DNA from: a virus
Reading direction: 5' to 3' (one strand)
Virus record (IMG/VR): IMGVR_UViG_3300005337_000002
Length of the DNA: 64,000 nt
Shown: piece after piece, positions 293 through 47,659 of the stretch
How the letters are laid out: the number at the start of each line of letters is the position of its first letter
Numbering within the stretch: the stretch's first letter is position 1
Made by a program: the position numbers and the translations under genes
The notes under the pieces: generated by a model
Seen by the model: the letters and a program-made list of their open reading frames with translations, nothing else
The model's database searches: none
What the model was told of the DNA's origin: nothing

Positions 293-1165
293 TCAAGCGC
301 CCACATAGGCTTTGACTATTTCCAGTCGGCAATGACCAAGTTCTTCGGACAGAATCGACCGCGCATCCTGGTCCCGCTCTCGCTGCTCTGGGGTCAAGTC
401 CCTATGGCTTGGCCCGCCCGCCACTGGACACAGAAACCCCGTCAACTCCAGAAACCGCCGCTGGGCATACGCATGCCGCAGGCCGTGCATATTGTGCAGC
501 CCCACGCGCTTCACCCAGTCGTCATAGCGGTAGCGTTGTTGGATATACGTGCGATGCGTGGGGATGAGCGACGCCTCCTTGCTCGGGAGCGTTTGCTTGA
601 GCCGGTCGAGGACCTCGCGTTGCGCGGCGGTCGCAATGGGAATCTGGCGCGGGCGTCCGCCCTTGGTCCACGAGCCTTGCAGCACCAGGTACTGCCCCTG
701 ATCCGCCTGCCACAGGCGTATCTTGATGCTCTCCTCCCGGCGCAACCCAAAGGCCCGTTGGAGTTCGAGGGAGGCTCGCACCCAGCGATCCTGTACGCGC
801 ATGAGGACATCATTCGGGACCGTCTGCGCTTTCGAGGTCTTGGCCACGAACTGCCGCGGGGGCAGGGCATAGATCGCGTTGTCTTTGGGCAGGATACTCA
901 CCCGATTGATCTTGTGTGCCCACCAGCGGAGAACGCTCAAGCGGTTGCGAATGGTGGCGCCGCTCAAGCCTTGCGTGTGCCAGAGCGCGAGGAGCTTGTC
1001 GATATGCCGGCCCTTGAGGTCCGTGGCGTGCAAGTCTTTATAGCCAAGGTGGATCAGTTGGTCGGCCATCTGCGCCAGGATCGTGCGCCGATTGGCCTGG
1101 GTCATGAAGGAACCATCGCGGTTGCGCTTGGTGAGTTGGACGAGTTCGTAGGTGAGTTGCTTCAT
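293..1165 (-). CDS. int: Tyrosine recombinase/integrase (small Integrase_1-like type)
   Basis: Catalytic set FGLRREE (R), TKGG (K), HGLRH (HxxR), LGH, KAYVG (Y); 290 aa. Confidence 0.93.
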   Translation of the reverse strand: MKQLTYELVQLTKRNRDGSFMTQANRRTILAQMADQLIHLGYKDLHATDLKGRHIDKLLALWHTQGLSGATIRNRLSVLRWWAHKINRVSILPKDNAIYALPPRQFVAKTSKAQTVPNDVLMRVQDRWVRASLELQRAFGLRREESIKIRLWQADQGQYLVLQGSWTKGGRPRQIPIATAAQREVLDRLKQTLPSKEASLIPTHRTYIQQRYRYDDWVKRVGLHNMHGLRHAYAQRRFLELTGFLCPVAGGPSHRDLTPEQRERDQDARSILSEELGHCRLEIVKAYVGA

Positions 1166-2243: not shown

Positions 2244-2820
2244 GTAATACTCCTTCTATTTCAGAGTTGATTTTTTGGTATCTCCTCCGCAGTGACGCGG
2301 CAGGCCAGCGCAGGGCTTCCCCCGCGCCAGGCCACGCGTGCGCGCCGATCCATCCGCGACATCTCAGCGGGATCGGCGCAGACAGGACGTCGGGCATCAC
2401 CCCCTCTCAGTCTCCGCTCAGGGTATATTCCAGCACCCGTCAGGTTTGGACTGGCAATCAAAGAGACGCTCATCCAAATGACGAGGTACATAGTCACGCA
2501 GCATCACCTCCTCTCAGGGACACACTCAAGGTATTGCCTGTGGGAGCTTGCCGTCATCACCATCACAGACAATAGTTTCGCCAACAATATGACACCCACG
2601 TTCATGTCGCATCACCCCCTTTCAGCGCGCCGCGGCACGTCGGTCCGCCACGTACGCAGCTGGCGCACCCAGCGCTCCTCGTGCTCCAATGCCCCCTCGA
2701 CCCAATAGGTCAGACGATGCCGCGCCAGCGTCTGCAGCACCCGCTGCCAGGTCGGTCGCGGATAGTGCGTCGCTGGATGGGCGCAGGAGCGCTGGACACA
2801 TTTCTTGGCTTGACGGCGTT

Positions 2821-3234
2821 TCATGGGGTGGCTCCTGGCGACGTACACACCCACCGGGGCGCACGATACGTACAGTCAGCACTTCCCGTAACGGGCGGCA
2901 TGGGCGTCCCACGCTGCACGGCCGCTTGGTACGTCTGAGCATCGAGGAGGACGGTGATCGCGGCAAACGTGCCAGCGACCGTGGCATCCACATCCAGGCG
3001 CCCCACCAGCGTATCGGCCTCGTGTAGATGGCGCACCACGGCACACGCGCCGGCCCGCTGGGGCGAGACGATCACGGCATAATGCAGGACACCCGTGGCC
3101 GTCGTCTCCATCAGGCAGGTTTGAGGCAGCAGTAGGACACGCTGGGGCAGAACCGGCCAAAGCCAGGTCGCCGCAAACACGGGGGCAAGGCCCAAGAGCG
3201 CCAGCACCGTGAGGGCACGAAAGAGGGGGATCAT
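2821..3234 (-). CDS. Membrane-anchored protein with a tail-fibre-repeat-like domain
   Basis: N-terminal hydrophobic segment; 11/44 ungapped identities to repeat 1 of the fibre at 50678-52198. Confidence 0.55.
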   Translation of the reverse strand: MIPLFRALTVLALLGLAPVFAATWLWPVLPQRVLLLPQTCLMETTATGVLHYAVIVSPQRAGACAVVRHLHEADTLVGRLDVDATVAGTFAAITVLLDAQTYQAAVQRGTPMPPVTGSADCTYRAPRWVCTSPGATP

Positions 3235-3441
3235 GGCCCCTCCTGCACGATAAACACAGCAAACGCAGTGCGGAAGACCGCGAGGCGCGCCTCACGCGCA
3301 CCGGCGGTTTGCAGACCCCCACGCCGTTTGGCCTCGACCAGACACACGGCGGAGCACGCGGTATGCCGGAATCCGCCATAGGGCGCAGGCGCGGGGGCAC
3401 GGACACCACAGCCCTCGCATTTGTAGGTCGCGACAGGCTGG

Positions 3442-3732
3442 TCAGGGGGTGGGGGCATCGGGAACTTCCTCCTGACGGAGGACCAGCGTGGCCAGTGCCT
3501 CCACCGTCGCCCAGGGGAGCGCCACTTCGCCCTCGCGCATGGCAGGCACGCCGCTGCCTGCCTGGACCAGCAGCGTAATGGGCTTCCCCAACTCGCGTGC
3601 ATACGCCAGTTGTCGCTGGCAGCGACGATCCTTGTGCCAGTTGGGCGTGACGAGCGCGACAAACACGTCATTGGTGCGCACATGGCGTTTCCAGTCAAGG
3701 CCATGCGTATGCATGTCAATGGGCATAGGCAT
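3442..3732 (-). CDS. Minimal TIR-like protein, catalytic Glu apparently replaced by Gln
   Basis: DVFVALVTPNWHKDRRCQRQLAYARELGKPITLL matches the TIR_2 core; AGGAGG RBS before ATG 3732. Confidence 0.6.
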   Translation of the reverse strand: MPMPIDMHTHGLDWKRHVRTNDVFVALVTPNWHKDRRCQRQLAYARELGKPITLLVQAGSGVPAMREGEVALPWATVEALATLVLRQEEVPDAPTP

Positions 3733-3742
3733 CCCTCCTGCC

Positions 3743-4027
3743 TTATTTCGCACGAAAGGTGACCGACGCACTCTCGCCGCTACAGCCAGACGGGAGGTCA
3801 AAGACACTGCTGGCCTTGCCCGTCTGGCGGAGCGTGAGCCGCACTTTCTCTGCGGGAGGCTCACCGCGCAGGACCGTTGTGCCATCGGACCAGACGGTAC
3901 AGTTGCGGCAGGCGACCCCGTCATTTTTCTCGAGTTTGGGCGGTCCCTCGACTTTGTCAAGGACATAGCCCTCAGGCGGGGTAAACGTGAAGCCGGCGGC
4001 GAGCAGGCAGGTGAGCAGAATCAGCAT
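3743..4027 (-). CDS. Small secreted protein
   Basis: N-terminal hydrophobic leader MLILLTCLLAAG; AAGGAG RBS. Confidence 0.55.
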   Translation of the reverse strand: MLILLTCLLAAGFTFTPPEGYVLDKVEGPPKLEKNDGVACRNCTVWSDGTTVLRGEPPAEKVRLTLRQTGKASSVFDLPSGCSGESASVTFRAK

Positions 4028-4774
4028 ACGGCGCTCCTTGTGGGTTGAACAGACAGCGATCTCTCACAGCGACAATGGGCGGGGCACTGATGACACTGCC
4101 CACAGCGGACGCCCCACCAGGCCCGCCAGGGGAGGAGGAAGTGCGGCGTGGGCGGGACCTGCACAGCATCACAGCCACAGGCATCGGTCACAGCCCGCGT
4201 CCCGGCATGGGCACAGCAATCGCAGTAGCGCGTGCGTTCCGGCAGACGGTGGTGCGGCATCAGTGTAGCTCCTCCAGCGTAAACACATCGCCCTCTGCTT
4301 CCCACGTGGTACTCGCTGGGGCCAGCGTCCGCGTCACGAGGTACTCATACAGCGGCGGCATAATATCACGGCGAGTATAGCGTTGCTGGATCACGACCGC
4401 CGGGCCATAGCCGTCCTCGTACCACACCTGCACCGGCTCGCCCTGGGCATAGCGCCACCGCACGAGGCCCCAGCGGGACAGCCAGCGGCGCAGACGTCCC
4501 GGCGTCTCACGGCGCCGCGGGGGTGGACGCGGTGCGGCCATCAGGGGGGCGTCTGGCGGAGGGGACGCGCCTTCATGCGCCTGCGCCCGGAGGGTGCGGA
4601 GCAGGTCGGCCGCAGCGGTGGCCAGCAGCGCGCGCCAGCCTGGCGGGAGGGCCCGCCCCGCCGGTGCCCGGAGCAGATCCTGGCAATCGCGGGCGAGTTT
4701 GTAGGCGCCCTGCCCCACGCGGTCGGTCGGCTCGAGGTGACAGGCCCAGAGGGGTCCGCGGGCGGGCGGAGGCC

Positions 4775-6886
4775 TCACGCGTCCTCCTTGCTCGGGGGCG
4801 CGCCTAGGGGCAGCGCGGAGAGCTGGCCCGCGGTCGTCCCGTAGCCGGTGTCGGCCAGCGCGGTCAGGCTGTGCCCAAACGGGCCCCCCGCCGTCGTACG
4901 ATAATGGAGACCGCCGCGCTGGCCCGTCCCGACGATATCGGCATACGGCGGGGAACTCACCGCACAATCGAGCTGGCCTGGGGGCATCGCGGCGAGTTGG
5001 CCCGGGGACGATCCATACCCGCGCGGGTGGTTGATTTGGGAATTTTTCCCAGTGGTGCCGCCAGACCGGCGCGGGCGAGAGGTGCGCTGTCTGCGGTCGG
5101 CAATCGACGTCCTCTCGTCTTGCCCATGGAAACTCTCGGCATAGGGCGGTGAGCTGATCGTGCACGCACACCCCTGGAGGAGCGGCAACTGTTGCCAGGC
5201 GTCCTCGGGCGGCAGGGGCGCGGGCTTGCGCATGCAATAGACCGTCTCCCATGCAATCGCGAGGTCCGGACGCTTCCGTTCATGCAGGCGGCGGAAGAAG
5301 GAGATGCGCTTGGTCTGGAGTGTCTCGGTCGAGGGCGTCGGGGTATAGCGCCCGGTGGTGTGGAGCGGCGCGCAGAGACTGTCGCCCTCAGCGTCGGTCC
5401 AGTGCATATCCGCGCCGTCCTGGGAAAAGAGCGTCTCCTGCGTGCCGTACTCCTCGGTCAGCACGGCGTGGTGCTCGTGGAGGGTCTCGAACCCGACACT
5501 TTCAGCGGCGAGGCGCCAGTCGCCAGGAAAATCGACGATGGTCCCGTCACGACAATAGCCTTTGACCACCCACAGCGCGTGGCCGCCTGGCCGCACGACG
5601 GCAAAGGTTTGCCGCAGAATCTGCACCGCTGCAGACCAAAAGGTGGTCGGCGCTGCGGTGCCGAGCTGCCCCGGACTGGCCCCATATGTCTGTGCCGCTA
5701 TGCCCCCGACGCCATGCGTGCCAAACGCGGCTTGCTGCGTGCGGTCGCGGCGGCCCCCGTCCACCTTCGACCAGTCAATCGCATCCCGCGTGTCATTGAG
5801 ACTGGCCGCGTAGGGAGGTGAGGACACGAGGCAGTCGGCCACCGGCATGGTTCCTAACTGCCCCGGCGAGTCGGGATAGTGATAATCCCCTTTGTTGCGG
5901 TCAGCACTTTGGCCAGTGGCGCGTGTCCCAGCACCAGCGCCGAGCTTTGTTGGCTTGGTATCCGTATTAGAAAAGGGGGGAGATGAGATCAGGCAGTCGG
6001 CCACTTCGCCCGTCGCCATGTTCCCGAGTTGCGCCGGATCACTGCCGTAGTACGGGTCCACGATGCCCTTGTCGTGCATGATGCCACGGTGACTATCCTT
6101 GTCGCGCTTGGCGTGGTCGGCGTAGGTATGTTCTTTGCCAAGGCCGTGGGCATAGGGCGGACTACTCACGCAGGCCGCAACCTGCCCGGCCAGCACCTTC
6201 TCCAACTCCCGACTATCGCCTCGCAGCAGCACGGCGCCCGTGTGGCCCTGCGCCGCCCAGGTCTCCAGATTGCCCTGGTAGTGATGCGGCCCACTCGACG
6301 GAATCGTGCCGCTGTTGTGGGCATAGCTCGTCGTCGTCACGGCAAAGAGCGTCGCCACCGGGCCATGGGGCGGTGGACGCACGCCATCCTGCCGATCTGG
6401 CAACGGCAGCGGCAGAAACGGCACGGTCCGCTGCCGCACGCGCTGGCCCGGTTTGGGCCGCGTCCGAAAGGTGCGGCGCCGGGCCACGGGCAGGCCGGTG
6501 CGCTGGGACGCCTGGGTCAGACAGCGCGGACACCAGTAGTGACCGTCTGCATAGCGCAGGCGTGTCCAGCGGCCATAGCAGCGCACCCAGTCCGCCTTGG
6601 TGATGCCGGTACAGTCACAGCCGGTGCCGAGATCATTGAAGGGTTGCTCCAACTCCACGCCGATCCAGCGACAGCCGAGGGCCATGGCATCCCAGGCGCC
6701 GAGGCCGACCCCCCCGAAGGGGTCAACAATGGTCGATCCCGGGGCAAGCCAGCCTTCGGCCGCCGCATGCGCATAGATGTGCTGAATGAGCGCCCGTGAG
6801 AATTTCGCCGGGTGCCCGAAGGCTTCTGGGACAATGTGCTGCCAACTGCTGCTGTACAACGATCGCCACACCGTTACGTCAACCAT
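4775..6886 (-). CDS. Amino (N4-C/N6-A) DNA methyltransferase with five SPP(Y/F) modules
   Basis: HPAKF, motif I DPFGGVG, GVELE, five SSPP(Y/F) motifs, downstream VVRPGG strand. Confidence 0.85.
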   Translation of the reverse strand: MVDVTVWRSLYSSSWQHIVPEAFGHPAKFSRALIQHIYAHAAAEGWLAPGSTIVDPFGGVGLGAWDAMALGCRWIGVELEQPFNDLGTGCDCTGITKADWVRCYGRWTRLRYADGHYWCPRCLTQASQRTGLPVARRRTFRTRPKPGQRVRQRTVPFLPLPLPDRQDGVRPPPHGPVATLFAVTTTSYAHNSGTIPSSGPHHYQGNLETWAAQGHTGAVLLRGDSRELEKVLAGQVAACVSSPPYAHGLGKEHTYADHAKRDKDSHRGIMHDKGIVDPYYGSDPAQLGNMATGEVADCLISSPPFSNTDTKPTKLGAGAGTRATGQSADRNKGDYHYPDSPGQLGTMPVADCLVSSPPYAASLNDTRDAIDWSKVDGGRRDRTQQAAFGTHGVGGIAAQTYGASPGQLGTAAPTTFWSAAVQILRQTFAVVRPGGHALWVVKGYCRDGTIVDFPGDWRLAAESVGFETLHEHHAVLTEEYGTQETLFSQDGADMHWTDAEGDSLCAPLHTTGRYTPTPSTETLQTKRISFFRRLHERKRPDLAIAWETVYCMRKPAPLPPEDAWQQLPLLQGCACTISSPPYAESFHGQDERTSIADRRQRTSRPRRSGGTTGKNSQINHPRGYGSSPGQLAAMPPGQLDCAVSSPPYADIVGTGQRGGLHYRTTAGGPFGHSLTALADTGYGTTAGQLSALPLGAPPSKEDA

Positions 6887-7524
6887 GAGGACGCCTCCAT
6901 GCGTGGCAGACGACGTGCACCACGAGGAGCCGGACGTTTGCCGCGACAGTTATGTCCGACCAGAAAGCGGCGCGGGCGCCCTTTTTTATCGTACTGTGCC
7001 AAAGGAGTCGCGCAACCACATGCACACAGGATGAGAGGATTCTCTGCTCCCACGCGACGCGTGTTGGGATTGTTGCCATGCTGTTGTGCATGGAGGGCTC
7101 TATCGACCACTTCTAAATTGTCAGGGCTATTATTCTGTTTGTTCTGATCTTTATGATGCACACATTCATTGCGACGCAGCGGCCGTCCGAGCATCGCTGT
7201 AACGACAACAATATGTTCCAAGACCCAGCCATTCGATGTGGCATGAGGATGTGATGGGCATTTAATCCGTACATAGCCATATGCGGTGATATGGCGCGTG
7301 CTGCTTTGCGCTCGTTGACATGTTTTTGAGCAGAAAAAGCGGCGGGATGCCCGTCGTCGCACGCGTGTACCGCACGTGCGACAGGGAAATTCTTCCACAT
7401 ACGATTCTTGAACAAAACGCCCCGTCGCATCTCTTGTACGCCCTGTCCATACATCGACCGCAGGTCCTCTGCCCACCCCATGATTTTCCTTCTTGGGTTC
7501 TTGCATATGAGCGAAATTCTCCAT
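6874..7524 (-). CDS. HNH (homing) endonuclease
   Basis: EHIVV..MLGRPL..NECVHHKDQNKQNNSPDNL; Cys-rich zinc motifs. Confidence 0.85.
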   Translation of the reverse strand: MENFAHMQEPKKENHGVGRGPAVDVWTGRTRDATGRFVQESYVEEFPCRTCGTRVRRRASRRFFCSKTCQRAQSSTRHITAYGYVRIKCPSHPHATSNGWVLEHIVVVTAMLGRPLRRNECVHHKDQNKQNNSPDNLEVVDRALHAQQHGNNPNTRRVGAENPLILCACGCATPLAQYDKKGRPRRFLVGHNCRGKRPAPRGARRLPRMEASSWLT

Positions 7525-7559
7525 CAGTCACATTGTTTCTTCTCCAGCGATCCCCCCCA

Positions 7560-8408
7560 TCACCGCCTCTCCTGTCCTCCTGAGCCAGTACTCGTCCCCG
7601 TTCCCGGCACAAATGCCCCCACCCCGACCTGCACCCGTGCCACCTGTCCGCGCTCCGTCGTGGCATCGAGCAGCGTCCCCACGACATAGCCGGTGCGCGG
7701 CGGGGTCGCTTGCGCATGACAGCGGCCGACCAGGTCCTGGGGCGCGGGCACGATATACCACCCGTGTGCCTGGGTGAGGGCGCTATCCATCTCGCACAGC
7801 GCCTCGCCCTCCGCCGCGACGAGGGCATGGCCGACCGTCCCGGCCCCCGCGAGGACAACGAAGAGCGGGACCGTGGGATCGCGCGAGACGCGCACGCCCG
7901 TGCCTGTGTGCTGGGCGAGCCGGTACTTGACGGTCCCCGTCGCCGCCTCATTGGGCACCGCCATCACGCGTGTCGACGGGCGTATCAGTGAGGACGAGTC
8001 TCCTTGTGGCAGGAGACTCGCCGCCTGGAGGATGGGCTGTGGCATGCTCGTCACGGTCCCCGTGCCTGCTCCTGTGTCTGCCGCGGTGGCGACATCCCGG
8101 GGCGTCCTGGCGGGTGCCTCCGCGCTCCACGTCGTGGGGAGCGGCGGGGACAGCGCCACGGGCACGGGCCGCACCGTGTACGGCCACCAGCGGTGCATCG
8201 GCGCCACTAGCAGGAGATACACCCCCACACAGGGCGCGAGCACCGCCAGCACCGTCCAGCCCCACACCACGAGTGCGTCAGTATCCCGCGGGCGGGGAGG
8301 ACGCCCCGTCCGCCGCCAGGTCCGCCCTGAGGCCGAGCCATACGCGGACGTCCGCCACCGGGCAATCTCCTCAGGCGTATAGTCCCACAGGGCTTTGTCA
8401 GGCGGCAT
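7560..8408 (-). CDS. Single-TM protein carrying a paralogue of the N-terminal domain of 44145-45569
   Basis: TM at about aa 46-69; about 50/135 identities by hand alignment, including C-x-MD and GxCHAQA. Confidence 0.8.
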   Translation of the reverse strand: MPPDKALWDYTPEEIARWRTSAYGSASGRTWRRTGRPPRPRDTDALVVWGWTVLAVLAPCVGVYLLLVAPMHRWWPYTVRPVPVALSPPLPTTWSAEAPARTPRDVATAADTGAGTGTVTSMPQPILQAASLLPQGDSSSLIRPSTRVMAVPNEAATGTVKYRLAQHTGTGVRVSRDPTVPLFVVLAGAGTVGHALVAAEGEALCEMDSALTQAHGWYIVPAPQDLVGRCHAQATPPRTGYVVGTLLDATTERGQVARVQVGVGAFVPGTGTSTGSGGQERR

Positions 8409-8715
8409 GCCGGTCCCTCTCCCGCATCAGTCCCTCGCTTGCTCATCCGCAAGGAAATCAGGCACCACATAGCGCCCCACAAAATACGTCAGGGTGCCAA
8501 GGTGCAGGCTCACGCCGAGCACAAACCACGGCAGCGGCGGATGGAGGACGCTTAGCACGAGATCGACCATCGTCGCGCTCAGCATCGCCACGCAGGCCAC
8601 GGGCGCGGCCCAGGACGCGGGGGCGGGGCGCACCCAGAGCCGTCCCTGCTGGGTATGGCGGTACGTGCGCAGGATGCGGGTCCGTTGCGCCGCATGACGA
8701 CTGACGCGCATGGGA

Positions 8716-9207
8716 TTAGGGCGCATGACGGTCCTCCTGTGCGGCGTCAGACGGTATCAGTGTGAGATGCACATAGCGCGCGACACCATACCCGTGAATC
8801 TGCACCGTCAGGCCCGTGCCTGGCGCCACGACCAGGGGTGACGTGAGAGGCTGCACCCGCAACAGTTGGTCCCCGCAGGGATAGCCACTGCGCCACGTGT
8901 CGTCGACTTTGATATCGACCGACGCGTTCGCCGTGTCCGCAACGCAGCGCAGGCGTGTATAGGTTTTGGCCGCAGGGCTCAGGTTGGTGCAGATCCACTC
9001 GTCGGTTTCGGTGGTGAGCGCCTCGGCCTCTGCGGAGAGGCTCCCGAAGATAATCGTACAGGGAAATGCCTGTGATGACCGGTGCGCCGGGAACCAGAAG
9101 ACTGACCGGTCCGGCTCTTCGACCAGCGGGCATGCCCACCAGAGGCCTACGAGGAGCCCCGCGCTCAAAAGAGTCCCGCCGATGAGCAGTACCTTTAGCA
9201 TGTCCAT
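8716..9207 (-). CDS. Single-TM protein carrying a paralogue of the C-terminal domain of 44145-45569
   Basis: N-terminal TM; PC.I..GS.S..A..L....D...C.N...T...C.AD pattern shared (16/50 in the core). Confidence 0.75.
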   Translation of the reverse strand: MDMLKVLLIGGTLLSAGLLVGLWWACPLVEEPDRSVFWFPAHRSSQAFPCTIIFGSLSAEAEALTTETDEWICTNLSPAAKTYTRLRCVADTANASVDIKVDDTWRSGYPCGDQLLRVQPLTSPLVVAPGTGLTVQIHGYGVARYVHLTLIPSDAAQEDRHAP

Positions 9208-9606
9208 TCTCCATGCTCCTCCGGCCAGGGAGAGCCACAACAGGGGCGATAGCCCTGCGGCCAGCGATCCTGCCGGCGCGTATACCAGGGCCACCAGCGT
9301 CCTGCATCCGTCAGCACGTCGGCATACCAGGCCCGCACGGTCGCAGCTTCCTGGGCCGAGTACGTGCCATCCTCCAGCAGCGGTACGAGGGCGCTATACG
9401 ACGTCCGAAGCATACGTCGAACATGGGCTTGCAAGCGCAGCCAGTGCAGATAGGCGATGCTCCAGCCCAGAATGAGCAGCGCACCGAAGACCCCGCAACT
9501 CACGAGCAGTATATGTCCCATGCGTCCTCTATCCTTTCTGTAGAGATCCGGTTACAATTTCACCCCAGCAGGCCCCATGAGACTCTCTCACGCAAAGGAT
9601 GTGTCT

Positions 9607-9966
9607 ATGTGTCCGCCCGCCTGTTGGATCGTCTCGTTCAGTTTCGGCGTCCTCCTCGGCGTCGGCCTGGCCCATCTGGCCCTGTGGATGGTCGCCCCAC
9701 CCCAGCGCGTGTTCTTGCGCGACGTCCCCGCCCCGCAGTGCCATGTCACCGCCTATGCGGCCAATGGCGCCGTGCTGGGCACACTCCTGGTCGCGCCCTC
9801 GCCGTATCACACGAATGCGGTCCACCTGCGCTGGGTACCCGAGGCCCCGCTGGCAGGCTACGTGCGCGTGACCGACCTCACCGCCGCGCTGGAGATCGCC
9901 TGGCCGCTGGGGGCTCACAGCCGGGTACCAGGACTGATGCCACAGGCGAGCGACAGCCGCACTTGA
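9607..9966 (+). CDS. Single-TM protein with a beta-rich fibre-repeat-like domain (antisense to the operon)
   Basis: AAAGGA RBS, TM, then PQRV as in 2821-3234. Confidence 0.5.
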   Translation: MCPPACWIVSFSFGVLLGVGLAHLALWMVAPPQRVFLRDVPAPQCHVTAYAANGAVLGTLLVAPSPYHTNAVHLRWVPEAPLAGYVRVTDLTAALEIAWPLGAHSRVPGLMPQASDSRT

Positions 9967-10364
9967 CGCACCCCTGCGGACTGCGCAATGCCCAGTATTA
10001 ACCGCGTGTCCCGTGGGAGCGCGAGCAGCGGCACCACCTGCCAGGCGTGTCCTGGGAGCAGCGGGAGCACCTGTGGCGGCTGCAGGCCAATCCGTACCGC
10101 ACTCGGGCCAATCGTGCCATCCGTCGAGAGCCGCACCGCGGTCAGGTGACAGGGACGGGCGAGCGCCATCGCGACGTGCGCGAGGTCCTCGGACGTCAAG
10201 GGATCGGGCGCCGTCGTATCCCCAAACACGAAGGTCATCATCTCGGGCTCCTCGGGCTCAGCGGCTGGAAACAGGCGCGGCCACAGGAGCATCACCTGCA
10301 TGCCCAGACTCACGAGGAGCAACCCGCACGTCAGCATCGTGAGCCAGGGGAGCCGATGGATCAT
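9915..10364 (-). CDS. Single-TM protein with a beta-sandwich domain resembling that of 8716-9207
   Basis: GGAGGAG RBS; TM; MTFVFGDTTAPDPLTSED...CHLTAV. Confidence 0.55.
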   Translation of the reverse strand: MIHRLPWLTMLTCGLLLVSLGMQVMLLWPRLFPAAEPEEPEMMTFVFGDTTAPDPLTSEDLAHVAMALARPCHLTAVRLSTDGTIGPSAVRIGLQPPQVLPLLPGHAWQVVPLLALPRDTRLILGIAQSAGVRQVRLSLACGISPGTRL

Positions 10365-10377
10365 GCGCGTCTCCTCC

Positions 10378-10851
10378 CTAGCCATGTCTCGCCATCTGGT
10401 GGCGCTGCCATTCTCTGAGCAACTCTGCCCCATAACGACTGTCGATGACAAACGCGTAGAACGCCTGCAACTCAGCGAGGTCCTCGTTATTCACGAGCGC
10501 GGCCTTGCGTTTGACGACCCGCCCCTCCTCGACGGTGAGAGTACCAGTATCACCGATCGATTCGCCTTGATACTGCACACAGCCTGTGAGTGAGACGTCG
10601 ACAGGGGCCAAGACATGATCGAGCAGATATTGGAGCCACTCGACATAGTGATAAAACTTCTCGCCGCCGTCCCATTCGAGGCCCCGCCGCCCCTGTGTGA
10701 GTTGCCACTGGTTGTACCCGGCGGGTACCGGCATGGGCAGGCCAGGCGGCATCACCTGCGCATCATAGAGATCTATGAGCAACAGCAATGTTTCCGCAGG
10801 AGGCGGCGTGGTAAATGTAAAACTGCCCTCAAAGTCGGTTGTATAGCCCAT
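10378..10851 (-). CDS. Conserved phage hypothetical protein (GYTTDF / WDGGEKFY type)
   Basis: Recurrent phage motif set; good RBS. Confidence 0.65.
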   Translation of the reverse strand: MGYTTDFEGSFTFTTPPPAETLLLLIDLYDAQVMPPGLPMPVPAGYNQWQLTQGRRGLEWDGGEKFYHYVEWLQYLLDHVLAPVDVSLTGCVQYQGESIGDTGTLTVEEGRVVKRKAALVNNEDLAELQAFYAFVIDSRYGAELLREWQRHQMARHG

Positions 10852-11807: not shown

Positions 11808-12335
11808 TCATAGCGAGTCTTCCTCCTGCTGCTGTGCTTCTACCTGCTCGCGCGCTACCATCCTATTCCCTAGGTGCCACCAGGAACAAAATCGACAGTG
11901 ATAGGCTTGTAGCGCTGTCCCATCCCAGGCATCCGGGGCACGTAGGATCGCCACACGAGCCGTGAGGGCGGCATTGCGGTGCTTGTAGCGCACCTTGCCA
12001 TGACAGACGTTGGCGATGTTACGCTGGCGTCCTGCGGCATAGAGCGACGGCAACTCCTTGCTGAGTCGTGCCCGCTCCCTGGGGGTCGCCAGCTGGCGCA
12101 CCAGAAAGAAAAAGACGCCGCCGGGCGTCCGACGCCGGGCCCCACTCGCGATGCGCATGCCGCCGTTCTGTTCGATCCGCAACGTCTCTTGCAAGATCGT
12201 CCAGCACCGCTGATGACCCAACGCACGCCAGACGTCCGTCAGGGCCGCCTGATTGGACTCCTGTAAGATCCTGGCGAGGATCGGCACGCTGAGGTGGGGG
12301 AGAGAGGACGGCTCTTGCACAACGGGTAACATCAC
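11808..12335 (-). CDS. PHAX RNA-binding-domain protein with C-terminal Cys/His motif
   Basis: ETLRIEQNGGMRIASGARRRTPGGVFFFLVR is the PHAX signature; YHCRFCSWWHL tail. Confidence 0.75.
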   Translation of the reverse strand: MMLPVVQEPSSLPHLSVPILARILQESNQAALTDVWRALGHQRCWTILQETLRIEQNGGMRIASGARRRTPGGVFFFLVRQLATPRERARLSKELPSLYAAGRQRNIANVCHGKVRYKHRNAALTARVAILRAPDAWDGTALQAYHCRFCSWWHLGNRMVAREQVEAQQQEEDSL

Positions 12336-14872: not shown

Positions 14873-15160
14873 TTATGCGCTTTGCTCTGTATACTCCTCC
14901 TCATCAGACGGCTTGGGAAAACGCCGCTTTTTAATCTTTTTGGGTGATGCAGGCTCTCCAATGAGCGCATCCAGCGTTACCCCCAGCGTTTTTGCCAGGC
15001 GCCCCGCAATATCCACGGCGATCCGCGCCCCGTCCAGTCGCCCACATTCCAACGCACTAATCGTCGGCGGCGCCACACGTGCGCGCTTGGCGAGTTCACG
15101 CTGGAGCCACCCTCGCTGTTTCCGTAAGGCCCGCACCCGAGCCCCTACTGTATCCGGCAT
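14873..15160 (-). CDS. XRE-family HTH regulator (Cro/CI-like)
   Basis: VRALRKQRGWLQRELAKRARVAPPTISALECG. Confidence 0.9.
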   Translation of the reverse strand: MPDTVGARVRALRKQRGWLQRELAKRARVAPPTISALECGRLDGARIAVDIAGRLAKTLGVTLDALIGEPASPKKIKKRRFPKPSDEEEYTEQSA

Positions 15161-15181
15161 AGCGATCCTCCTTTCACTGTC

Positions 15182-15251
15182 AGTATAAAGCATAGGGAAA
15201 TTTTCTGCAATAAAAAATATCCTTGAATTTTACTACAATATTCTTTATACT
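15182..15251. promoter_or_regulatory. Back-to-back sigma70 promoters (genetic switch)
   Basis: Leftward TTGCAG-17-TATACT (15210-15182); rightward TTGAAT-17-TATACT (15223-15251); AT-rich island at the strand switch. Confidence 0.8.
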
Positions 15252-20798: not shown

Positions 20799-21197
20799 AT
20801 GAGTGACAAGCATAATCTCTCCGACTATACCCCTGAAGAGATTCAGCAGTGGCAGGCGTCCGCCTATCCGTCCGCGTCGGGACGCACCTGGCGCCGGCGG
20901 CTCCATACGGTCATTGCAACCGCAGTGCCTCCACGCTGTATCCCTCTCCTCGAATGGCTCGAAGAGGTCCTCGCGTGCGTGCCGCCGGCATGGACCTTTC
21001 TGCCTTTTCTGGCCGTCGGCGTCGTCCTGCTGGTCACGCAGAGTATGACCCCGCCCGCCCCGCCGTTCGACACCGCCAGCTTCGGCCTCGTGCCCATGAC
21101 GCCCCAGCCGGAGCCTCTCCTGCGGTTCTATGGCAAGGTCCTCGTTGACCTTGCCTGCATCGGTATTCCGCTGGGCCTTGTGTTCCATAGACGCTAG
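20799..21197 (+). CDS. Membrane protein sharing its N-terminal module with 7560-8408
   Basis: DYTPEEI..W..SAY.SASGRTWRR present in both. Confidence 0.65.
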   Translation: MSDKHNLSDYTPEEIQQWQASAYPSASGRTWRRRLHTVIATAVPPRCIPLLEWLEEVLACVPPAWTFLPFLAVGVVLLVTQSMTPPAPPFDTASFGLVPMTPQPEPLLRFYGKVLVDLACIGIPLGLVFHRR

Positions 21198-30666: not shown

Positions 30667-31277
30667 CACAGGGTCATCATATAGATACCTACGTTGATCT
30701 GCGTGCGAAGGCCTTGGGCTATGATGATTACGCACACTATCTCCGTAGTGACCATTGGCAAACATTCTGTGCCACCGTCCGTAAAACGCTCTGCTGGTGT
30801 TGCGGACGCTCGCAGGGTCACCTACATGTCCATCACACCACCTATGCGCGTTTTGGTTCTGAAGAGCCTGGAGACGTTATTACGGTCTGTAAGGGATGCC
30901 ATTTGGCGATCCATGCTCTCTCGCGCACCGGCATCGCCCTTGATGAGGCCCACATTGTCTATCGGCGCCGACGTATCCAGCGCGGGGCACGTCACAAACG
31001 GCCTCGCTGGGTCAGTTGGTTTCAACTCCTCAACAAATCAAAACAGCAGACGATTGGCGAGTTACGTCTCTTTTTAGAAGAGCATGGTTTGCTTGAAGGG
31101 GAGGAAGCCACACCCAAAGCATTTGCGCTCGGTTTTGTCCGCTTAGAGGATGGGGAGCAGCGATGGAACCTGAAGAAGTACCTCGGGTTTGTTTCTGCGT
31201 GGAAATCCATTGAGAAGCGACGGGAACAAGGCCGTGGCATTTCCCGCACAGTGGCACGCCTCGCGTCTGGGCGTTAA
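30654..31277 (+). CDS. HNH endonuclease
   Basis: YLRSDHW...CWCCG...LHVHHTTY.RFG.E...D..TVC..CH..IH. Confidence 0.8.
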   Translation: MRHLAQGHHIDTYVDLRAKALGYDDYAHYLRSDHWQTFCATVRKTLCWCCGRSQGHLHVHHTTYARFGSEEPGDVITVCKGCHLAIHALSRTGIALDEAHIVYRRRRIQRGARHKRPRWVSWFQLLNKSKQQTIGELRLFLEEHGLLEGEEATPKAFALGFVRLEDGEQRWNLKKYLGFVSAWKSIEKRREQGRGISRTVARLASGR

Positions 31278-31305
31278 GAACATCTCTCACAGAAAGGACA
31301 TGCGC

Positions 31306-32568
31306 ATGGAGCGCACCCTGCCGAAGAAGCTCACGGAGCTGGGCCGAATCCGCATAGGAGATCGTGAACCAAACGCCCGGGGCGGGGGCACGCATCCCCA
31401 TAAGCTCTCGACCTTTCGTCTGACCTCGCAAAACGGCTCCCTGCTGGGCTTTGTGGCGTCCCTCTATGGTGGCACGGTGAAACCCTGGGAGGGCGAGGGG
31501 GCGCCGGTGGATGAGCACGGCCGCGCCACGCATTTCGAGGTGTACACGGAAGCCAATAGTCTGGACGTGCTCATTCCCACGATGAGTGCGGTGGCCCTAT
31601 CCTATGAGGTCTGGAGTGCGTCCGGGTGCCAGCGGCGATGCACGGGCACGGTCATTCAGGATTGCGCGACGAACCTGGATCTGATTGGCAAAGCCTGTAT
31701 CTGCCCGGCGGACGATCTGGAGCGGGCGGATCAGGCCCAGCGCGGGGCAGCCTGCCTGCGGATTCTGCGCTTGAACGTGCTGCTGCCGGACGTGCCGGGC
31801 CTGGGGACATGGCGGCTGGAGACGAAGGGGTTTTATGCCGCTGCGGAGCTGCTCGGGACGCTGGACCTGCTCACACAGGCCGGGGGCGAGCATGCCATTA
31901 TCGAGAGTGTCTTGCGGCTGGAGCAGCGCACGCTCAAGCGGGCGGCACGGGGCGATCAGAAAGCGCAAACGATGAAATTCGTGGTGCCGGTGCTCTGGCC
32001 GAAATGGACGCCGCGCCAACTGCTTGCGGGCACGGCCAATATCCTGCTCATGGCCCCGCCGACGGCTGAGGAGCCCCCGCGCCTCGCGTCGCCGATCGGC
32101 GATCTCTACGGCGACCAGGCTGCGCCCGCGGCGGATCCTGGGCAGCGGCATGAACCAGCGCTCCTCGATGCGCTTGCGGCCCATCCGGGGGAGACGCTGG
32201 AGACGTGGTATGGCTGGGCGGAGAAGCGCCTGCACAAAGCGCGTACGGCCTTTACGGACGACGACTACGGCATGCTGCTGCAAACGATCCGCGATACGGT
32301 CCGCAAAGCCAGGGCGACGGGCGAGACGTCTGATCCAGACTGGCGCATGAGTGTCACCCGCTTGGCTGCAGAGACGCGGGCGTTGCTCACGGGGAAGAAT
32401 CCGTCCCAAGCCATGGAGCGGAAGGTGCGGGCCGCCTGTGCCACGGCCACGGGGGTGGCAGAAGATCCCGACGCAACGGTCGCTGTGGGCGAGGCGTGTC
32501 TGGAGACGCTACGCACCGTGGCCGATGAGGTGCGGGCGCATTTGGCCCACGGTGGCGCAGTGGTCTAG
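31306..32568 (+). CDS. Gp3-like (recombination directionality factor-like) phage protein
   Basis: ELGRIRIG...KLSTFRLTS...RRCTG...RLNVLLPDVPGLGTWRLETKG. Confidence 0.7.
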   Translation: MERTLPKKLTELGRIRIGDREPNARGGGTHPHKLSTFRLTSQNGSLLGFVASLYGGTVKPWEGEGAPVDEHGRATHFEVYTEANSLDVLIPTMSAVALSYEVWSASGCQRRCTGTVIQDCATNLDLIGKACICPADDLERADQAQRGAACLRILRLNVLLPDVPGLGTWRLETKGFYAAAELLGTLDLLTQAGGEHAIIESVLRLEQRTLKRAARGDQKAQTMKFVVPVLWPKWTPRQLLAGTANILLMAPPTAEEPPRLASPIGDLYGDQAAPAADPGQRHEPALLDALAAHPGETLETWYGWAEKRLHKARTAFTDDDYGMLLQTIRDTVRKARATGETSDPDWRMSVTRLAAETRALLTGKNPSQAMERKVRAACATATGVAEDPDATVAVGEACLETLRTVADEVRAHLAHGGAVV

Positions 32569-33592: not shown

Positions 33593-34645
33593 ATGCGCAG
33601 AGTCCTGCTCCTCCTGCTCCTCCTGCTCCTCCTGAGTAGTCAGCTGGTGTCTGCCGCCTCCCTCACGATTGGCCCTGGGGACGCGCTCAGTGCCGCCGTG
33701 GCGCAGTTGCATCCGGGCGAGACGCTGACCCTGCTGGGCGGGACGTATACCCAGCCGCTGCGCTCGGGCGACGTGGTCTTCCCCAGCGGCACGTCCTGGC
33801 AGGCGCCGATTACCATTCAGGGGGCGCCCGGTGCCACCGTGGTCCTGACGCAGCCCGTCAATATCCAGGCCAATAGCGACGGGTCCTCGGTCCGCTATCT
33901 CATCCTCGCCAACCTGCACATGCCGACCTTTCGTGTGGGCGATCAGACGAGCTTCTTGCGGGTGCAGGACAGCGACATGACGGGGGATGCCAACCACGGC
34001 ATCACGATTACCTCCACGACCGATCATATCGAGATTCTCCGCACCCTCGTGCATGATGCGCAGGTGGGGAGCAATCCCGCCTATAGCGTCACGACGGCCA
34101 CCTATGGCTGCTACTGTAACGGGCAGCATATGCTGATCGAGGGCAACACGTTTCGCCAGAACAGCGGGTATGCGCTCCACCTCTATTTGAGTGGCAGCAC
34201 GGTCAATAATGCCATCGTGCGGCGCAACACGTTTGTGGGGAACGCCGCGGATGATGGCACCCGCAACCTCACGCTGGGGGTGGTCATTCTGGCCGGGAGC
34301 AACAATCTGTTCTGCGGCAATACGCTGACGGACAACCCCACGCTGCATGGCGGGCCGGCGGTCTCGGCGGAGTATGGCAGCGGCAACGTGATCGTCGGCA
34401 ATACCATCAGTGGGACGAATGGCCCGGCGATTGAACTGAACGACTCGGCGGTGGGGACGGTGGTGGCGGGCAATCAGCTCACCAATAATCAGGGCGGGAT
34501 CGTGGGGCCGGGGATGACGACGATGGTGACGACGACGACGGTGGACTGTGCGGCGCCGCTCGCGGCGCCCTCGCCCGTGCCGGTGGCGCAGAAGCCGCCT
34601 GCGCCCACGCACTTGCGGGTGCTAGCGATTCTCCCCTCACACTAG
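33593..34645 (+). CDS. Secreted right-handed beta-helix (pectin lyase-like) protein, paralogue of 42265-44148
   Basis: Signal peptide; shared GGTY, YGCYCNG, GYA.HLYLSG, DGTR. Confidence 0.85.
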   Translation: MRRVLLLLLLLLLLSSQLVSAASLTIGPGDALSAAVAQLHPGETLTLLGGTYTQPLRSGDVVFPSGTSWQAPITIQGAPGATVVLTQPVNIQANSDGSSVRYLILANLHMPTFRVGDQTSFLRVQDSDMTGDANHGITITSTTDHIEILRTLVHDAQVGSNPAYSVTTATYGCYCNGQHMLIEGNTFRQNSGYALHLYLSGSTVNNAIVRRNTFVGNAADDGTRNLTLGVVILAGSNNLFCGNTLTDNPTLHGGPAVSAEYGSGNVIVGNTISGTNGPAIELNDSAVGTVVAGNQLTNNQGGIVGPGMTTMVTTTTVDCAAPLAAPSPVPVAQKPPAPTHLRVLAILPSH

Positions 34646-37346: not shown

Positions 37347-38546
37347 CTAGTCTGTGTGCAACGCCCGCTGCATGCGCTCAGCTATCCTCTCGCTGTTGGC
37401 GGGATGGAGGAGCCGCTGCATCACCAACTGGGCCTCGATGGCACGTATGACGTGCGCGTGGTCCTGGGGCATAGGCGGCGGCGCTGTGTCACTGGACACG
37501 GTCGCGACAAGGCCTGCAGGCGGATCACTCACGGGGGTCAGCACAAACCCATGCCGCACCCCCTGGACCAGCCCCTCCCCCGCGATGAGCCCCTGGGCAT
37601 TGCGACTGAGCACCCGCTGGAGTTGCCAGCCGTCCGCATTGGTCACGCGGGCCTGGAGTGCGATGGGCTGGTCCTGCGCATCCCAGAGCGTGGCGACACG
37701 GACCGTGAGTCCCGGCTCCTCCCCCTCGGTCACACTGGCCCCGAGCACGTTGCCGTCGTCATCGAGCCCGTCGCCCTCGCTCGTCTCCAAGCCCTCCAGC
37801 GGCGTCAGGACGTGCTTGCCATCGCTGCGATAGATCGCGGCCTGGCTGACGGGGGCATGGTCCTGCACGACAATCTCCCCAGCCCGGTTATTGATGCCCC
37901 GCGCCTCACTCCCCGCGACGAGGTCAAAGATCGCGCCCGCGAAACTCCAGAAGGCGGCATGGAGCACCCCGGCCTCATCCGTCGCCGCACCCGCACTATA
38001 GCCCGCGTCATTGATGGCGGTGAGAAACGCGGATTGCTGGTCGGCCAGCAGGCGTAAGGTGCGGGGCTGTCCGTCTTCCCAGAGCGTCGGTTCCAGGTGA
38101 CTGCGGTCTGGCACTTCGGCATAGCCCGCCACGACGAGGCTCAGGTTACAACTGGTCGCCGCGCTAAAGAGATCGGGATCGCCGAGAGTGCCCTCATCGA
38201 TCAAGCCGCCCGGGCCGGTGAACGTACAGGCATGAGTGAAGAGCGAGAACGGCCCAGTGCCGCACAGACCCACCGTGGCGCCGTTACAGATGGCGGCGGC
38301 GATGGAGAACGTGCCACCGGGGAGGAAGCCCAGGGGCACGGGGACGGGGAAGAGGAGCGCGGCGATCTGGTTGGGGCCAAGGAGGGTGCCCGCCACGAGG
38401 GGCTGCAGCGGATCGACCCCGGCGACGAGCACCTCGCCCAGGTCGGTGAGGGTATACGCATCGGCGAGCGGGGCCGCTGGGGTGCGGGACGGGAAGAGCA
38501 GGACGAGGAGCAGGAGGGTCACAACAGTGCTGATGGCACGAGGCAT
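37347..38546 (-). CDS. Secreted HAF-repeat (beta-propeller-like) protein, probable moron
   Basis: Signal peptide; YTLTDLG, AIND.G, HA.FW, HGFVLTP. Confidence 0.75.
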   Translation of the reverse strand: MPRAISTVVTLLLLVLLFPSRTPAAPLADAYTLTDLGEVLVAGVDPLQPLVAGTLLGPNQIAALLFPVPVPLGFLPGGTFSIAAAICNGATVGLCGTGPFSLFTHACTFTGPGGLIDEGTLGDPDLFSAATSCNLSLVVAGYAEVPDRSHLEPTLWEDGQPRTLRLLADQQSAFLTAINDAGYSAGAATDEAGVLHAAFWSFAGAIFDLVAGSEARGINNRAGEIVVQDHAPVSQAAIYRSDGKHVLTPLEGLETSEGDGLDDDGNVLGASVTEGEEPGLTVRVATLWDAQDQPIALQARVTNADGWQLQRVLSRNAQGLIAGEGLVQGVRHGFVLTPVSDPPAGLVATVSSDTAPPPMPQDHAHVIRAIEAQLVMQRLLHPANSERIAERMQRALHTD

Positions 38547-42264: not shown

Positions 42265-44148
42265 TCACCGCATGCTCACGCGGTGGCGGCGCACCGTGGC
42301 ACTCTGGCGGTAGTCCGTCAGAATCTCGGCGGCACTCCAGACGCGATTATCCAGACGAAAGTCATCGACGCTGCCGGGGTCATAGTACGTGCCGGATTCA
42401 TTCACCCAGCGGCCGACGTCAAAGACCGTCAGATCGACGGTCGGGGCGGTCGAGGACGGCGCCGACGCCACAAGCGCGCCGTTCGCATAGATCGCCCGCA
42501 CGCTACTGGTTGCCCCGCTGGAGACGAGCGCGAACCGCACCCATCGCCCGAGATAGGGTGTACAGTCCACGCTCACGCGCCCGACGGTATGCCAGTCGCC
42601 GTAGTCCCAGTAGCAGACATTGTCGCTGTACGGGAGATGCGCGCCAAACCGGTCCTGCACCGCGGCGCTATGCGCGCCAAAGGCCCCGGTGACGCCCCCG
42701 GCGGTCACTTTGCGCCACAGGAGCACGGTGACGGGCTGCCCCGCTGTCCACACCATCGTGGCAGTGGTCACGTACTGCGCCACGCCGTTCATCGTCACGG
42801 CGCCGGTCCCGACGCGCCCCGGTCCCCAGAGCGGACCCCCCGCGAGCGTGCCGGTATAGCCATTGCCCGTCGCATCGGCCACGGTCGTCCCCGTGCCCTC
42901 ATCGAATTTCCACCGCAGCGCTTGTGGGCCGGTCGTCACGACGCCGCTGCCATACTCTTCCGCCCCGAGGTCATAGGCCGCGCCCTGGGGCCGTGCGATC
43001 CCGCGCCGATCGGTCGGCACGGCGGCGAGCGTGACGCCCGCATCAATGGCCGGGCTGCCCGCCTGGAGGCGAAAGTCGCCGGCAGCCGCATTGACAAAGA
43101 GGGGATCGCCCGTGAGCAGATTATGATCCCGGATCGTGCCGGTGGCCCCGTCATCTTGAATGGTGTCCGCGTTCCCCGTCAGGATATTGTTCTGAATTTT
43201 GGTATTCGTATTGCCGACGTTGATTTCAATCGCCGCGCTCTGCGGGTTCTGGGTAATGGTATTGTTATAGACGCGATTATTATCCACCCCAAAGCCGCCG
43301 GTGCCCGGACTGATACTCACGACGGCTCCATTGCCAATGCAGAGATTATTCGAAAAGATATTGTTCGCGAGGAGATTATTCCCGCCATTCATAATGATGA
43401 CATTGAGCCCTTGCCCCCGCGTGCCGTCATTAAAGCAATTCTCGTGAAACAGGTTATTGGTGACGACGGCATTTTCCACCCCACCCCCGCTGAGATAGAG
43501 ATGGATCGCATAGCCATAGTTGTCATAAAACTCGTTGCCATCCATCGTCATATTCGTCCCGTTACAGTAGCAGCCATACTGGCCCGGAATGCCGTTTGGA
43601 TCGCCGACATAATTGAGATCGAGCCGCGCCCCGTGGATCTTATTGCCCACGAGGCGGACATGATCGGTATAGCGGGCGATGCCCACCGTCGCGAAATCGC
43701 CCCCCGTAAAGTTGCTGTTGCTGACGGTAATATGGTGGCTATTGATCGAGATTTCCAGATGGGGCGAGGTCAAGTTATCCAGCGTGAGATATTGCGGGAT
43801 GCTGGCATCAAAGTTGTCCTGGATATTGATCTGGTTGGGGATCACCACCGTTTCGCCGGGATACCCCGCGATGGTGATGCGCGTACTCTCATTCGTGCCG
43901 CTGGGGAGGCGAAAGCCCACGGGACTAAAGAGTTCATTATAGGTCCCACCCCGAATGAGCAGCGTATCGCCCGGTGTCAGGCACGCGACCCCAGCGGCAA
44001 TCGTGCGCCGGGGCGTGGTCAGTTGGGTGGCCGCCGCACAGCTATTGCCGGCGGCGACGGCCCCATCAACATAATAGATCGTGGCGTGGGCAGGCCCCCA
44101 CCAGAGACCGCAGAGGAGGACGACCAGGAGCATGCGAGGGTGTCTCAT
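42265..44148 (-). CDS. Secreted beta-helix plus LamG protein (depolymerase/adhesin-like)
   Basis: Signal peptide AHA; TIYYVD; beta-helix repeats; DFRLQAGSPAIDAG; WKFDEGTG...LamG. Confidence 0.85.
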   Translation of the reverse strand: MRHPRMLLVVLLCGLWWGPAHATIYYVDGAVAAGNSCAAATQLTTPRRTIAAGVACLTPGDTLLIRGGTYNELFSPVGFRLPSGTNESTRITIAGYPGETVVIPNQINIQDNFDASIPQYLTLDNLTSPHLEISINSHHITVSNSNFTGGDFATVGIARYTDHVRLVGNKIHGARLDLNYVGDPNGIPGQYGCYCNGTNMTMDGNEFYDNYGYAIHLYLSGGGVENAVVTNNLFHENCFNDGTRGQGLNVIIMNGGNNLLANNIFSNNLCIGNGAVVSISPGTGGFGVDNNRVYNNTITQNPQSAAIEINVGNTNTKIQNNILTGNADTIQDDGATGTIRDHNLLTGDPLFVNAAAGDFRLQAGSPAIDAGVTLAAVPTDRRGIARPQGAAYDLGAEEYGSGVVTTGPQALRWKFDEGTGTTVADATGNGYTGTLAGGPLWGPGRVGTGAVTMNGVAQYVTTATMVWTAGQPVTVLLWRKVTAGGVTGAFGAHSAAVQDRFGAHLPYSDNVCYWDYGDWHTVGRVSVDCTPYLGRWVRFALVSSGATSSVRAIYANGALVASAPSSTAPTVDLTVFDVGRWVNESGTYYDPGSVDDFRLDNRVWSAAEILTDYRQSATVRRHRVSMR

Positions 44149-45569: not shown

Positions 45570-45607
45570 ACGTATCCTTTCGGCGGCGTCTAGACCGCGG
45601 TGACGTG

Positions 45608-47543: not shown

Positions 47544-47571
47544 TGTGCGTACTCCTGTGCTATACTTAGCA

Positions 47572-47628: not shown

Positions 47629-47659
47629 ATCCATCCTTCTGAGCCTGTAAGGAGGCGGC

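Follow-up and report, generated by a model that had tools for sequence, protein, structure and literature searches.

The stretch of DNA described here (the window) comprises 64,000 nucleotides of the IMG/VR virus record IMGVR_UViG_3300005337_000002 and is part of a 141.6-kb metagenome contig. Its minus strand carries an early operon with a cluster of genes for small membrane proteins, and a late region with tail, fibre and lysis genes. Three of the early proteins, measuring 282, 163 and 137 amino acid residues (aa), each resemble a single module of one late protein of 474 aa. The four genes are as follows.

44145–45569, minus strand: 474-aa late protein, the probable source of the copied modules, encoded between the fibre and the lysis genes.
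7560–8408, minus strand: 282-aa bitopic membrane protein with an Arg-rich, predicted cytoplasmic segment (aa 1–44), a transmembrane (TM) segment (approximately aa 46–70), a Pro-rich linker and an ectodomain (aa 134–276).
8716–9207, minus strand: 163-aa signal-anchor protein, the ectodomain of which (aa 46–152) is a probable copy of aa 346–471 of the late protein.
2821–3234, minus strand: 137-aa protein with a signal-peptide-like N-terminus (..PVFA/AT) and four conserved Cys, in which aa 37–105 match the second half of the late N-terminal domain.

The late protein begins with a Sec signal peptide (aa 1–32, followed by Gln 33). A jellyroll (approximately aa 38–160, called the N-domain here) comes next, then a single fibre repeat (aa 162–232) and a Phage_depo_C-like sandwich (approximately aa 240–338). 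The C-terminus is a Cys-rich sandwich resembling discoidin and carbohydrate-binding modules (CBM), which comprises aa 346–474 and is called the C-domain here.

In BLASTP, residues 134–276 of the 282-aa protein aligned with residues 28–171 of the late protein with 52 of 145 positions identical (36%; E 5e-24). An earlier note on this DNA, written from the sequence alone, had described the protein as a TM segment plus a domain approximately 37% identical to the late N-terminal domain with both Cys kept, and the alignment bears it out. We scanned all 908 stop-to-stop open reading frames (ORFs) of the window, in six frames, with hidden Markov models (HMMs) built from late-family members only. The N-domain HMM recovered 7560–8408 at E 3e-31 and, through the second half of the domain, 2821–3234 at E 1.2e-7; the next ORF had E > 1. 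The comparison of the 282-aa protein with the late N-domain in hhalign gave 99.5%. The family motif is PN[DE]xxTGT ... C.[MF]D ... AG.CH, and the positions invariant in a 16-sequence alignment are N153, G158, T159, L164, A165, D208, G228, H231, P237 and G240. The 282-aa copy keeps all of them, together with the Cys pair C205 and C230. A remnant of the start of the fibre repeat (GAGTGTVTS) flanks the early N-domain.

The 163-aa protein reached only E 0.01 against the late C-domain in BLASTP. A profile was made from three sequences, the window's protein and those of two related elements, L010 and L011. With it, residues 46–152 aligned to residues 346–471 of the late protein with an hhalign score of 34.4 over 107 columns. 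Column-permuted nulls for this pair scored 15.0 ± 1.8 with a maximum of 23.4, and none of 300 reached the observed value. The C-domain HMM had 8716–9207 as its top non-self match in the ORF scan (E 0.007–0.016). The Cys pattern and the strand order agree between the 163-aa ectodomain and the late C-domain. The model of the 163-aa protein consists of a TM helix followed by a beta-sandwich, with a moderate predicted local distance difference test (pLDDT) score of 66, rising to 70–85 in the core. The modelled ectodomain (Z 6–7) and the modelled late C-domain match identical Protein Data Bank (PDB) chains over equal residue ranges: PHM, 5y4m, 8pfe, 9rkv_M, 9f4b, 7fcn, 1czs and 8hcj. A beta-sandwich fold class is thus likely from the models; Z scores of 6–8 are common among beta-sandwiches and point to no specific family or ligand. 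Fold searches of BFVD and ESM-Atlas with the 163-aa model returned weak matches only, some of them minor tail or fibre proteins and F5/8-C domains. The reading of this gene as a TM segment plus the late C-terminal domain, proposed in the earlier note, is therefore upheld at the level of both profile and fold.

For the 137-aa protein, hhalign against the late N-domain gave a score of 41.2, against 15.4 ± 1.6 for the nulls, of which 0 of 120 reached the observed score; a four-sequence profile gave 78%. The protein keeps both Cys of the N-domain pair and has lost the conserved His. Three relatives are 81–88% identical to it; the core is almost invariant, and the four Cys are kept. The protein had been taken for a TM segment plus one repeat of the fibre at 50678–52213. 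This assignment was ruled out (BLASTP E 5.8; the pair does not rank among the top 30 in hhalign), and the match lies with the second half of the late N-domain instead.

When the profiles of nine early membrane ORFs were compared all-versus-all with those of twelve late proteins, every significant match fell on 44145–45569. We are confident that modules of this late protein, or of its type, were duplicated into the early operon, each placed on a signal anchor or signal peptide, and that they then diverged and were conserved. With the same high confidence, the outcome is a full jellyroll in the 282-aa protein, half of it in the 137-aa protein and the C-terminal sandwich in the 163-aa protein. 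The mirror set of virion-type domains put forward in the earlier note thus stands in so far as the modules of one late protein recur as separate early membrane or exported proteins; its extension to several virion proteins does not. The remaining membrane ORFs of the cluster are listed below.

9915–10364, minus strand: 149-aa signal-anchor protein with marginal full-length similarity to the 163-aa family.
9577–9966, plus strand: 129-aa membrane protein encoded within the cluster on the other strand, with no significant link to the late protein.
9195–9521, minus strand: 108-aa single-TM protein, similar to no late protein; the stop of its gene and the start of the 163-aa gene overlap.
8427–8726, minus strand: 99-aa protein with one or two hydrophobic segments; the gene overlaps the 163-aa gene, lies 18 nt from the 282-aa gene and is kept in L010 and L011.
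3743–4027, minus strand: 94-aa ORF with a hydrophobic start and no detectable relation to any late protein.

Three of these had been suggested as weaker members of the set. The 149-aa protein is a candidate only, with 1 of 120 nulls reaching its score against the 163-aa family, and nothing was found when it and 3743–4027 were compared with the late protein. The plus-strand ORF 9577–9966 was tried as a degenerate N-domain and rejected: a CH..NG.V.G motif aligns, but the score (16.1) equals that of the permuted null (16.3). Its 3′ end overlaps the 3′ end of 9915–10364 by 52 nt, and it may be expressed on its own, for instance in lysogens.

The late protein has 13 near-full-length relatives. All 14 aligned members carry a Sec signal peptide, as judged by inspection of the alignment and hydropathy, with ends such as ..VDA/Q, ..WGQ and ..FAQ, and the Gln33 that follows the predicted cleavage site is invariant. 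The family has the features expected for signal peptidase I, namely a basic n-region, a hydrophobic core and small residues at positions −3 and −1. The AlphaFold model of the late protein has a mean pLDDT of 77.7 (80–93 within the domains). Its N-domain resembles capsid decoration or cement proteins and the base of the phi29 head fibre (Z 10.2–12.3; root-mean-square deviation 2.6–3.3 Å over 107–124 residues), with a sequence identity of only 5–10%. A feature search of ESM-Atlas also pointed to Phage_cement_2, and none of 16 N-domain family members matched the Pfam entry of that name (PF09956) at E ≤ 5. The modelled middle domain resembles the C-terminus of a tailspike depolymerase (Solidus gp83, Z 9.5). 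Phage_depo_C (PF25692) matched the relative P0006 with 28.2 bits (the cut-off is 25) and the relative P0007 with 20.2 bits, and gave no match with the window's protein. For the modelled C-domain, the similar structures are a distal fibre domain of Agrobacterium phage 7-7-1, a baseplate protein of KP1 and modules of the discoidin/CBM type (Z 7–8). A sequence search of the PDB with the late-family profile gave nothing useful.

As expected of a fibre, the late protein contains a phage fibre repeat, and its gene lies in the tail module. Residues 162–232 form one unit of a widespread repeat and are 52–63% identical to repeats of other phage fibres. The protein is thus fibre-like in content and yet predicted to be exported by Sec; a role as virion adhesin is putative, and the conserved signal peptide casts doubt on its incorporation into the virion. 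Its gene lies in a block of late genes next to a tail fibre gene.

50678–52213, minus strand: tail fibre that carries an S74 chaperone domain at its C-terminus and lacks a signal peptide.
42265–50693, minus strand: consecutive late genes after the S74 fibre gene, the products of which all start with Sec-type signal peptides.
45608–46495, minus strand: LamG protein within this block.
42265–44148, minus strand: beta-helix protein within this block.

The block comprises proteins of 788 aa, approximately 180 aa and 170 aa, the LamG protein, the 474-aa protein and the beta-helix protein. Signal peptides are likewise encoded by the corresponding genes of related IMG/VR phages and contigs from metagenomes (L002–L005, L016–L018). 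A Sec-type signal peptide is also found at the start of the protein encoded at 37347–38546 on the minus strand.

The hydrophobic N-termini of the early proteins, pointed out in the earlier note, are real. By hydropathy, the 163-, 149-, 108- and 129-aa proteins are signal-anchor types, and the N-terminus of the 137-aa protein has the look of a signal peptide that is cleaved off, more than that of an anchor. In the 282-aa protein, six Arg fall within the 14 residues that precede a strongly hydrophobic segment; by the positive-inside rule, its N-terminus is predicted to be inside and its domain outside. Based on this rule and on the conserved Cys pairs, which fit an oxidising compartment, we infer that all three copied domains face the periplasm, the compartment that the late protein would enter.

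The cytoplasmic end of the 282-aa protein may be a functional module of its own. Its N-terminal motif, DY[TS]PEEI..W..SAY.SA.GRTWRR, occurs in one other protein of the window (E 6e-9; hhalign 97.6%).

20799–21197, plus strand: 132-aa membrane ORF in an oppositely oriented gene block, with this motif at its predicted cytoplasmic N-terminus.

In L011, the homologue of the 282-aa protein (1346–1855) has a four-Cys Zn-ribbon-like insert between the cytoplasmic motif and the TM segment.

At least two other elements, L010/L001 and L011, have orthologous clusters with the same gene order, and conservation of the early genes extends over three or four related elements. The orthologue of the 282-aa protein in L001 and L010 is P0124; between the relative and the window, the linker is variable, with a 55-aa insert on the relative's side, and the anchor and ectodomain are 86–87% identical. 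The ratio of nonsynonymous to synonymous substitution rates (dN/dS) relative to L010 is 0.24 for the 163-aa, 0.22 for the 99-aa and 0.32 for the 149-aa gene. The lowest value of the cluster, 0.10, belongs to the 129-aa plus-strand gene 9577–9966, and the 282-aa ectodomain has 0.54 at a dS of only 0.14. The early copies are maintained genes under purifying selection and not decaying duplicates. The earlier note had named neutral decay into pseudogenes as the finding that would speak against it; dN/dS values of 0.2–0.5 for the copies and synteny in L010 and L011 show otherwise. A functionless leftover of a duplicated fibre gene might be suspected in the 137-aa protein, which is half a domain from which the conserved His is gone. 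The intact frames, a dN/dS range of 0.10–0.54, the conserved synteny and the almost invariant core and Cys of this same protein make decay highly improbable. P0124 also occurs in the same three samples as P0001, a homologue 93% identical to the late protein, so the relative very probably has both partners.

We computed a maximum likelihood tree of 28 N-domains, including two early copies. The early N-domains have their place in the phage late-protein clade (support 100/96) and are set apart from the copies on contigs of Terriglobia metagenome-assembled genomes (MAGs) and from those in other architectures. They sit on a stem of 1.93 with tips of 0.05–0.07. A long stem with short tips is what would be expected if a copy diverged towards a new role and was then constrained, and the tree agrees with a single old duplication of a late-type gene, after which change was rapid at first and later constrained. 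At E ≤ 0.001, the N-domain family comprises 2,222 clusters (50% identity), and its proteins, 134–3,944 aa long, each carry one to four copies of the domain. Most short members consist of a signal peptide and an N-domain. An anchored architecture with a cytoplasmic tail was seen in 0 of 20 short members inspected; P0176 among them is a start-truncated fragment of the early type. On four MAG contigs of Terriglobia and Acidobacteriaceae (L012–L015), the N-domain is internal to giant secreted fibre-like proteins of 1,146–1,897 aa. In L014 and L015, the next gene encodes a signal-peptide beta-helix protein like that at 42265–44148 of the window. By the first residues of their ORFs, the neighbourhoods on three of the four contigs do not look phage-like, and that on the fourth is unclear. 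No match was returned by tblastn searches of cultured phages and plasmids with the early and late proteins, and no relative by a scan of IMG/VR with the early protein.

The window contains a minus-strand tail module of the lambda-like siphophage type. The genes that frame the two regions discussed here are the following.

60717–63998, minus strand: tape measure protein with an SLT domain, part of the lambda-like tail module.
14873–15193, minus strand: HTH_3 regulator, the head of the long minus-strand operon.
4775–6886, minus strand: 703-aa methyltransferase-like protein with repeated SPPY/SPPF motifs, 81% identical in L010.
293–1165, minus strand: tyrosine integrase of the Integrase_1 type, the last gene of the operon.

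Further genes of the tail module encode a DUF1833 gpL-like protein, an NlpC/P60 gpK-like protein and a 1,871-aa gpJ-like protein. The early operon runs in the order HTH_3, Lar-like, membrane-protein cluster, HNH, large methyltransferase, xis-like and int. It is tightly packed, and the same layout from HTH_3 to int is present on the relative's contig. A promoter and terminator scan of 2500–10700 revealed nothing informative. Within the operon, the product of 11808–12335 (minus strand) matches the PHAX RNA-binding domain (PF10258, E 1e-19), which is unexpected in a phage. Directly past int, beyond position 1 of the window on its own contig, a TraG/TrwB-type coupling protein is encoded, suggesting that the phage-like region abuts or belongs to a conjugative element. 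The plus-strand block encodes a 459-aa protein with a Gp3-like recombination-directionality-factor domain (31189–32568, E 3e-33) and a 350-aa beta-helix/NosD protein (33593–34645). Relatives of the late N-domain were found in MAGs of Terriglobia and Acidobacteriaceae, and the host is therefore probably an acidobacterium. The source phage probably belongs to a temperate siphophage lineage of soil, of the Acidobacteria type.

What the tethered modules do can be approached from what they have kept. The 282-aa copy retains every family-invariant residue, and so binding to the partner of the late modules has probably been preserved in the copies. This partner might be an envelope glycan or protein, or the docking partner of the fibre. 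Made early and held at the inner membrane, the copies would occupy or sequester the ligand of the late modules. Superinfecting phages of the same type could then be excluded while crossing the periplasm, or the phage's own exported fibre proteins could be saved from capture by the cell that makes them. In a diderm host, the ectodomain of a protein held in the inner membrane is on the periplasmic side, which makes the masking of a cell-surface receptor topologically unlikely; interference inside the periplasm is not made unlikely by this topology. We put forward, as a tentative and quite possible reading, that the copies compete for a periplasmic ligand, for instance in superinfection exclusion.

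Several observations weigh against it. No early membrane protein matches a known exclusion family in Pfam, PHROG, PADLOC or NCBIfam; there was no relevant match at E ≤ 0.1 in these collections, two early ORFs had weak matches to PHROGs of unknown function, and one ORF matched an NCBIfam model below threshold. In the tree, the early N-domains do not pair with the late protein of the window, and the early N-domain is 32–37% identical to all late members. There is consequently no evidence of co-variation with the present late allele, and the co-variation with the late adhesin envisaged in the earlier note left no sign. Four related IMG/VR phages that have the late protein carry a single N-domain copy and no relative of the 163-aa protein; two of these records are complete genomes, and two are incomplete, so that absence there is weak evidence. 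The early copies are thus a lineage-specific addition. Finally, the N-domain family is very common, and paralogues within one genome could be incidental.

This last point can be taken further. The jellyroll and the beta-sandwich, modules that are widespread and mobile among secreted proteins of Acidobacteria and their phages, may have been reused for an unrelated periplasmic task, in which case the kinship with the late protein would be functionally meaningless. Envelope remodelling at takeover is one candidate task, and a transmembrane sensor acting via the N-terminal motif, loosely like the T4 RI antiholin, is another. The size of the family (2,222 clusters), its presence as an internal module of giant proteins on Terriglobia MAG contigs and the failure of the early copy to pair with its own late protein agree with such reuse. 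The cytoplasmic motif shared with 20799–21197, together with the Zn-ribbon-like insert of L011, likewise suggests that the cytoplasmic side matters. Chance reuse does not readily account for three separate early proteins that all map to one late protein and to none other. It also fits poorly with an early N-domain inside the phage late-protein clade, away from the copies on Terriglobia MAG contigs and in other architectures, and with the lack of this kind of anchoring in all 20 short members inspected, where P0176 is an early-type fragment. We regard incidental reuse as somewhat unlikely.

The fold of the late N-domain invites a different explanation, in which the early proteins help to assemble or anchor the late one. 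The tethered copies would bind the exported late protein and serve as a periplasmic docking platform, a chaperone or a retention device until lysis. They might, for example, join a trimer of the late protein through an interface like that of the decoration-protein jellyroll. Trimeric capsid decoration proteins and the phi29 head-fibre base have the same fold as the late N-domain (Z 10–12), and early and late proteins are predicted to share one compartment. Two further features agree with it: the fibre-repeat remnant GAGTGTVTS beside the early domain and the arrangement of the 108-, 163-, 99- and 282-aa genes, which overlap or nearly abut as expected for a complex. Early timing is a poor fit for aiding late proteins, an identity of 36% and the long branch speak against a conserved hetero-oligomer interface, and the four related phages export the same late protein without an early copy. 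On balance, helpers of this kind are unlikely.

Taken together, the comparisons point to a real, conserved and lineage-restricted set of three (possibly four) early proteins, predicted to face the periplasm, that derive from one exported fibre-like late protein. A more specific proposal, which we consider somewhat unlikely, is a dedicated system partnering the Sec-exported fibre proteins of Acidobacteria phages. In it, the phage would display copies of the binding modules of its fibre in the periplasm, either to shield the infected or lysogenic cell, as a prokaryotic equivalent of receptor interference by retroviral Env, or as a membrane docking platform for fibre proteins maturing outside the cytoplasm.

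Known envelope exclusion proteins of phages include T4 Imm and Sp, P22 SieA, HK97 gp15, TP-J34 Ltp, T5 Llp and Cor. The early copies are like them in being small, made early or from the prophage, anchored in the inner membrane or exported, and, by prediction, placed to act in the envelope. We found no sequence relationship between the two groups in Pfam, PHROG, PADLOC or NCBIfam, and to our knowledge none of these exclusion proteins is paralogous to a fibre or receptor-binding protein of the same phage. Another system to compare is the receptor interference exerted by retroviral Env, for example Fv-4 or the enJSRV env, in which Env meets its receptor in the secretory pathway. There, the infected cell's copy of a viral binding module blocks the ligand, and the logic would be the same if ligand competition by the early copies holds. 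The retroviral system is eukaryotic, whereas the early copies are predicted to face a diderm periplasm, and the likeness is one of analogy only.

Among structures, the late N-domain has its jellyroll fold in common with capsid decoration and cement proteins and the phi29 gp8.5 base (8qsy_JJ, 9ocb_H, 5wk1_K, 6qyy_A). Unlike these, it occurs after a signal peptide, as a part of giant secreted proteins or, in the early copy, on a membrane tether. The sandwich fold of the late C-domain and the 163-aa ectodomain is common to the Agrobacterium phage 7-7-1 fibre (9rkv_M), the KP1 baseplate protein (9f4b), CBM36 and discoidin. Our literature searches found no described phage with early membrane proteins paralogous to its own fibre modules, and signal peptides on fibres are not mentioned in the Tunturi phage paper. 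Tail-assembly interference by Tai blocks tail assembly of other phages (PMC11364771), and the abstract of that work does not mention membrane-tethered copies of fibre modules. As far as can be told, early membrane-tethered copies of a phage's own fibre modules are apparently undescribed.

If the reading of ligand competition is true, a phage would be redeploying modules of its own fibre as tethered proteins of the periplasm, and this way to self-recognition or interference would be new. The finding bears on the puzzle of Acidobacteria phages with export signals on proteins in the fibre slot: the early copies suggest that, in one lineage, fibre modules are used in the periplasm, as predicted here, independently of the virion. 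The analysis also defines a large unannotated domain family with a decoration-protein-like fold. As small single-domain proteins, the early copies may be of use in the search for the ligand that the exported fibre proteins bind.

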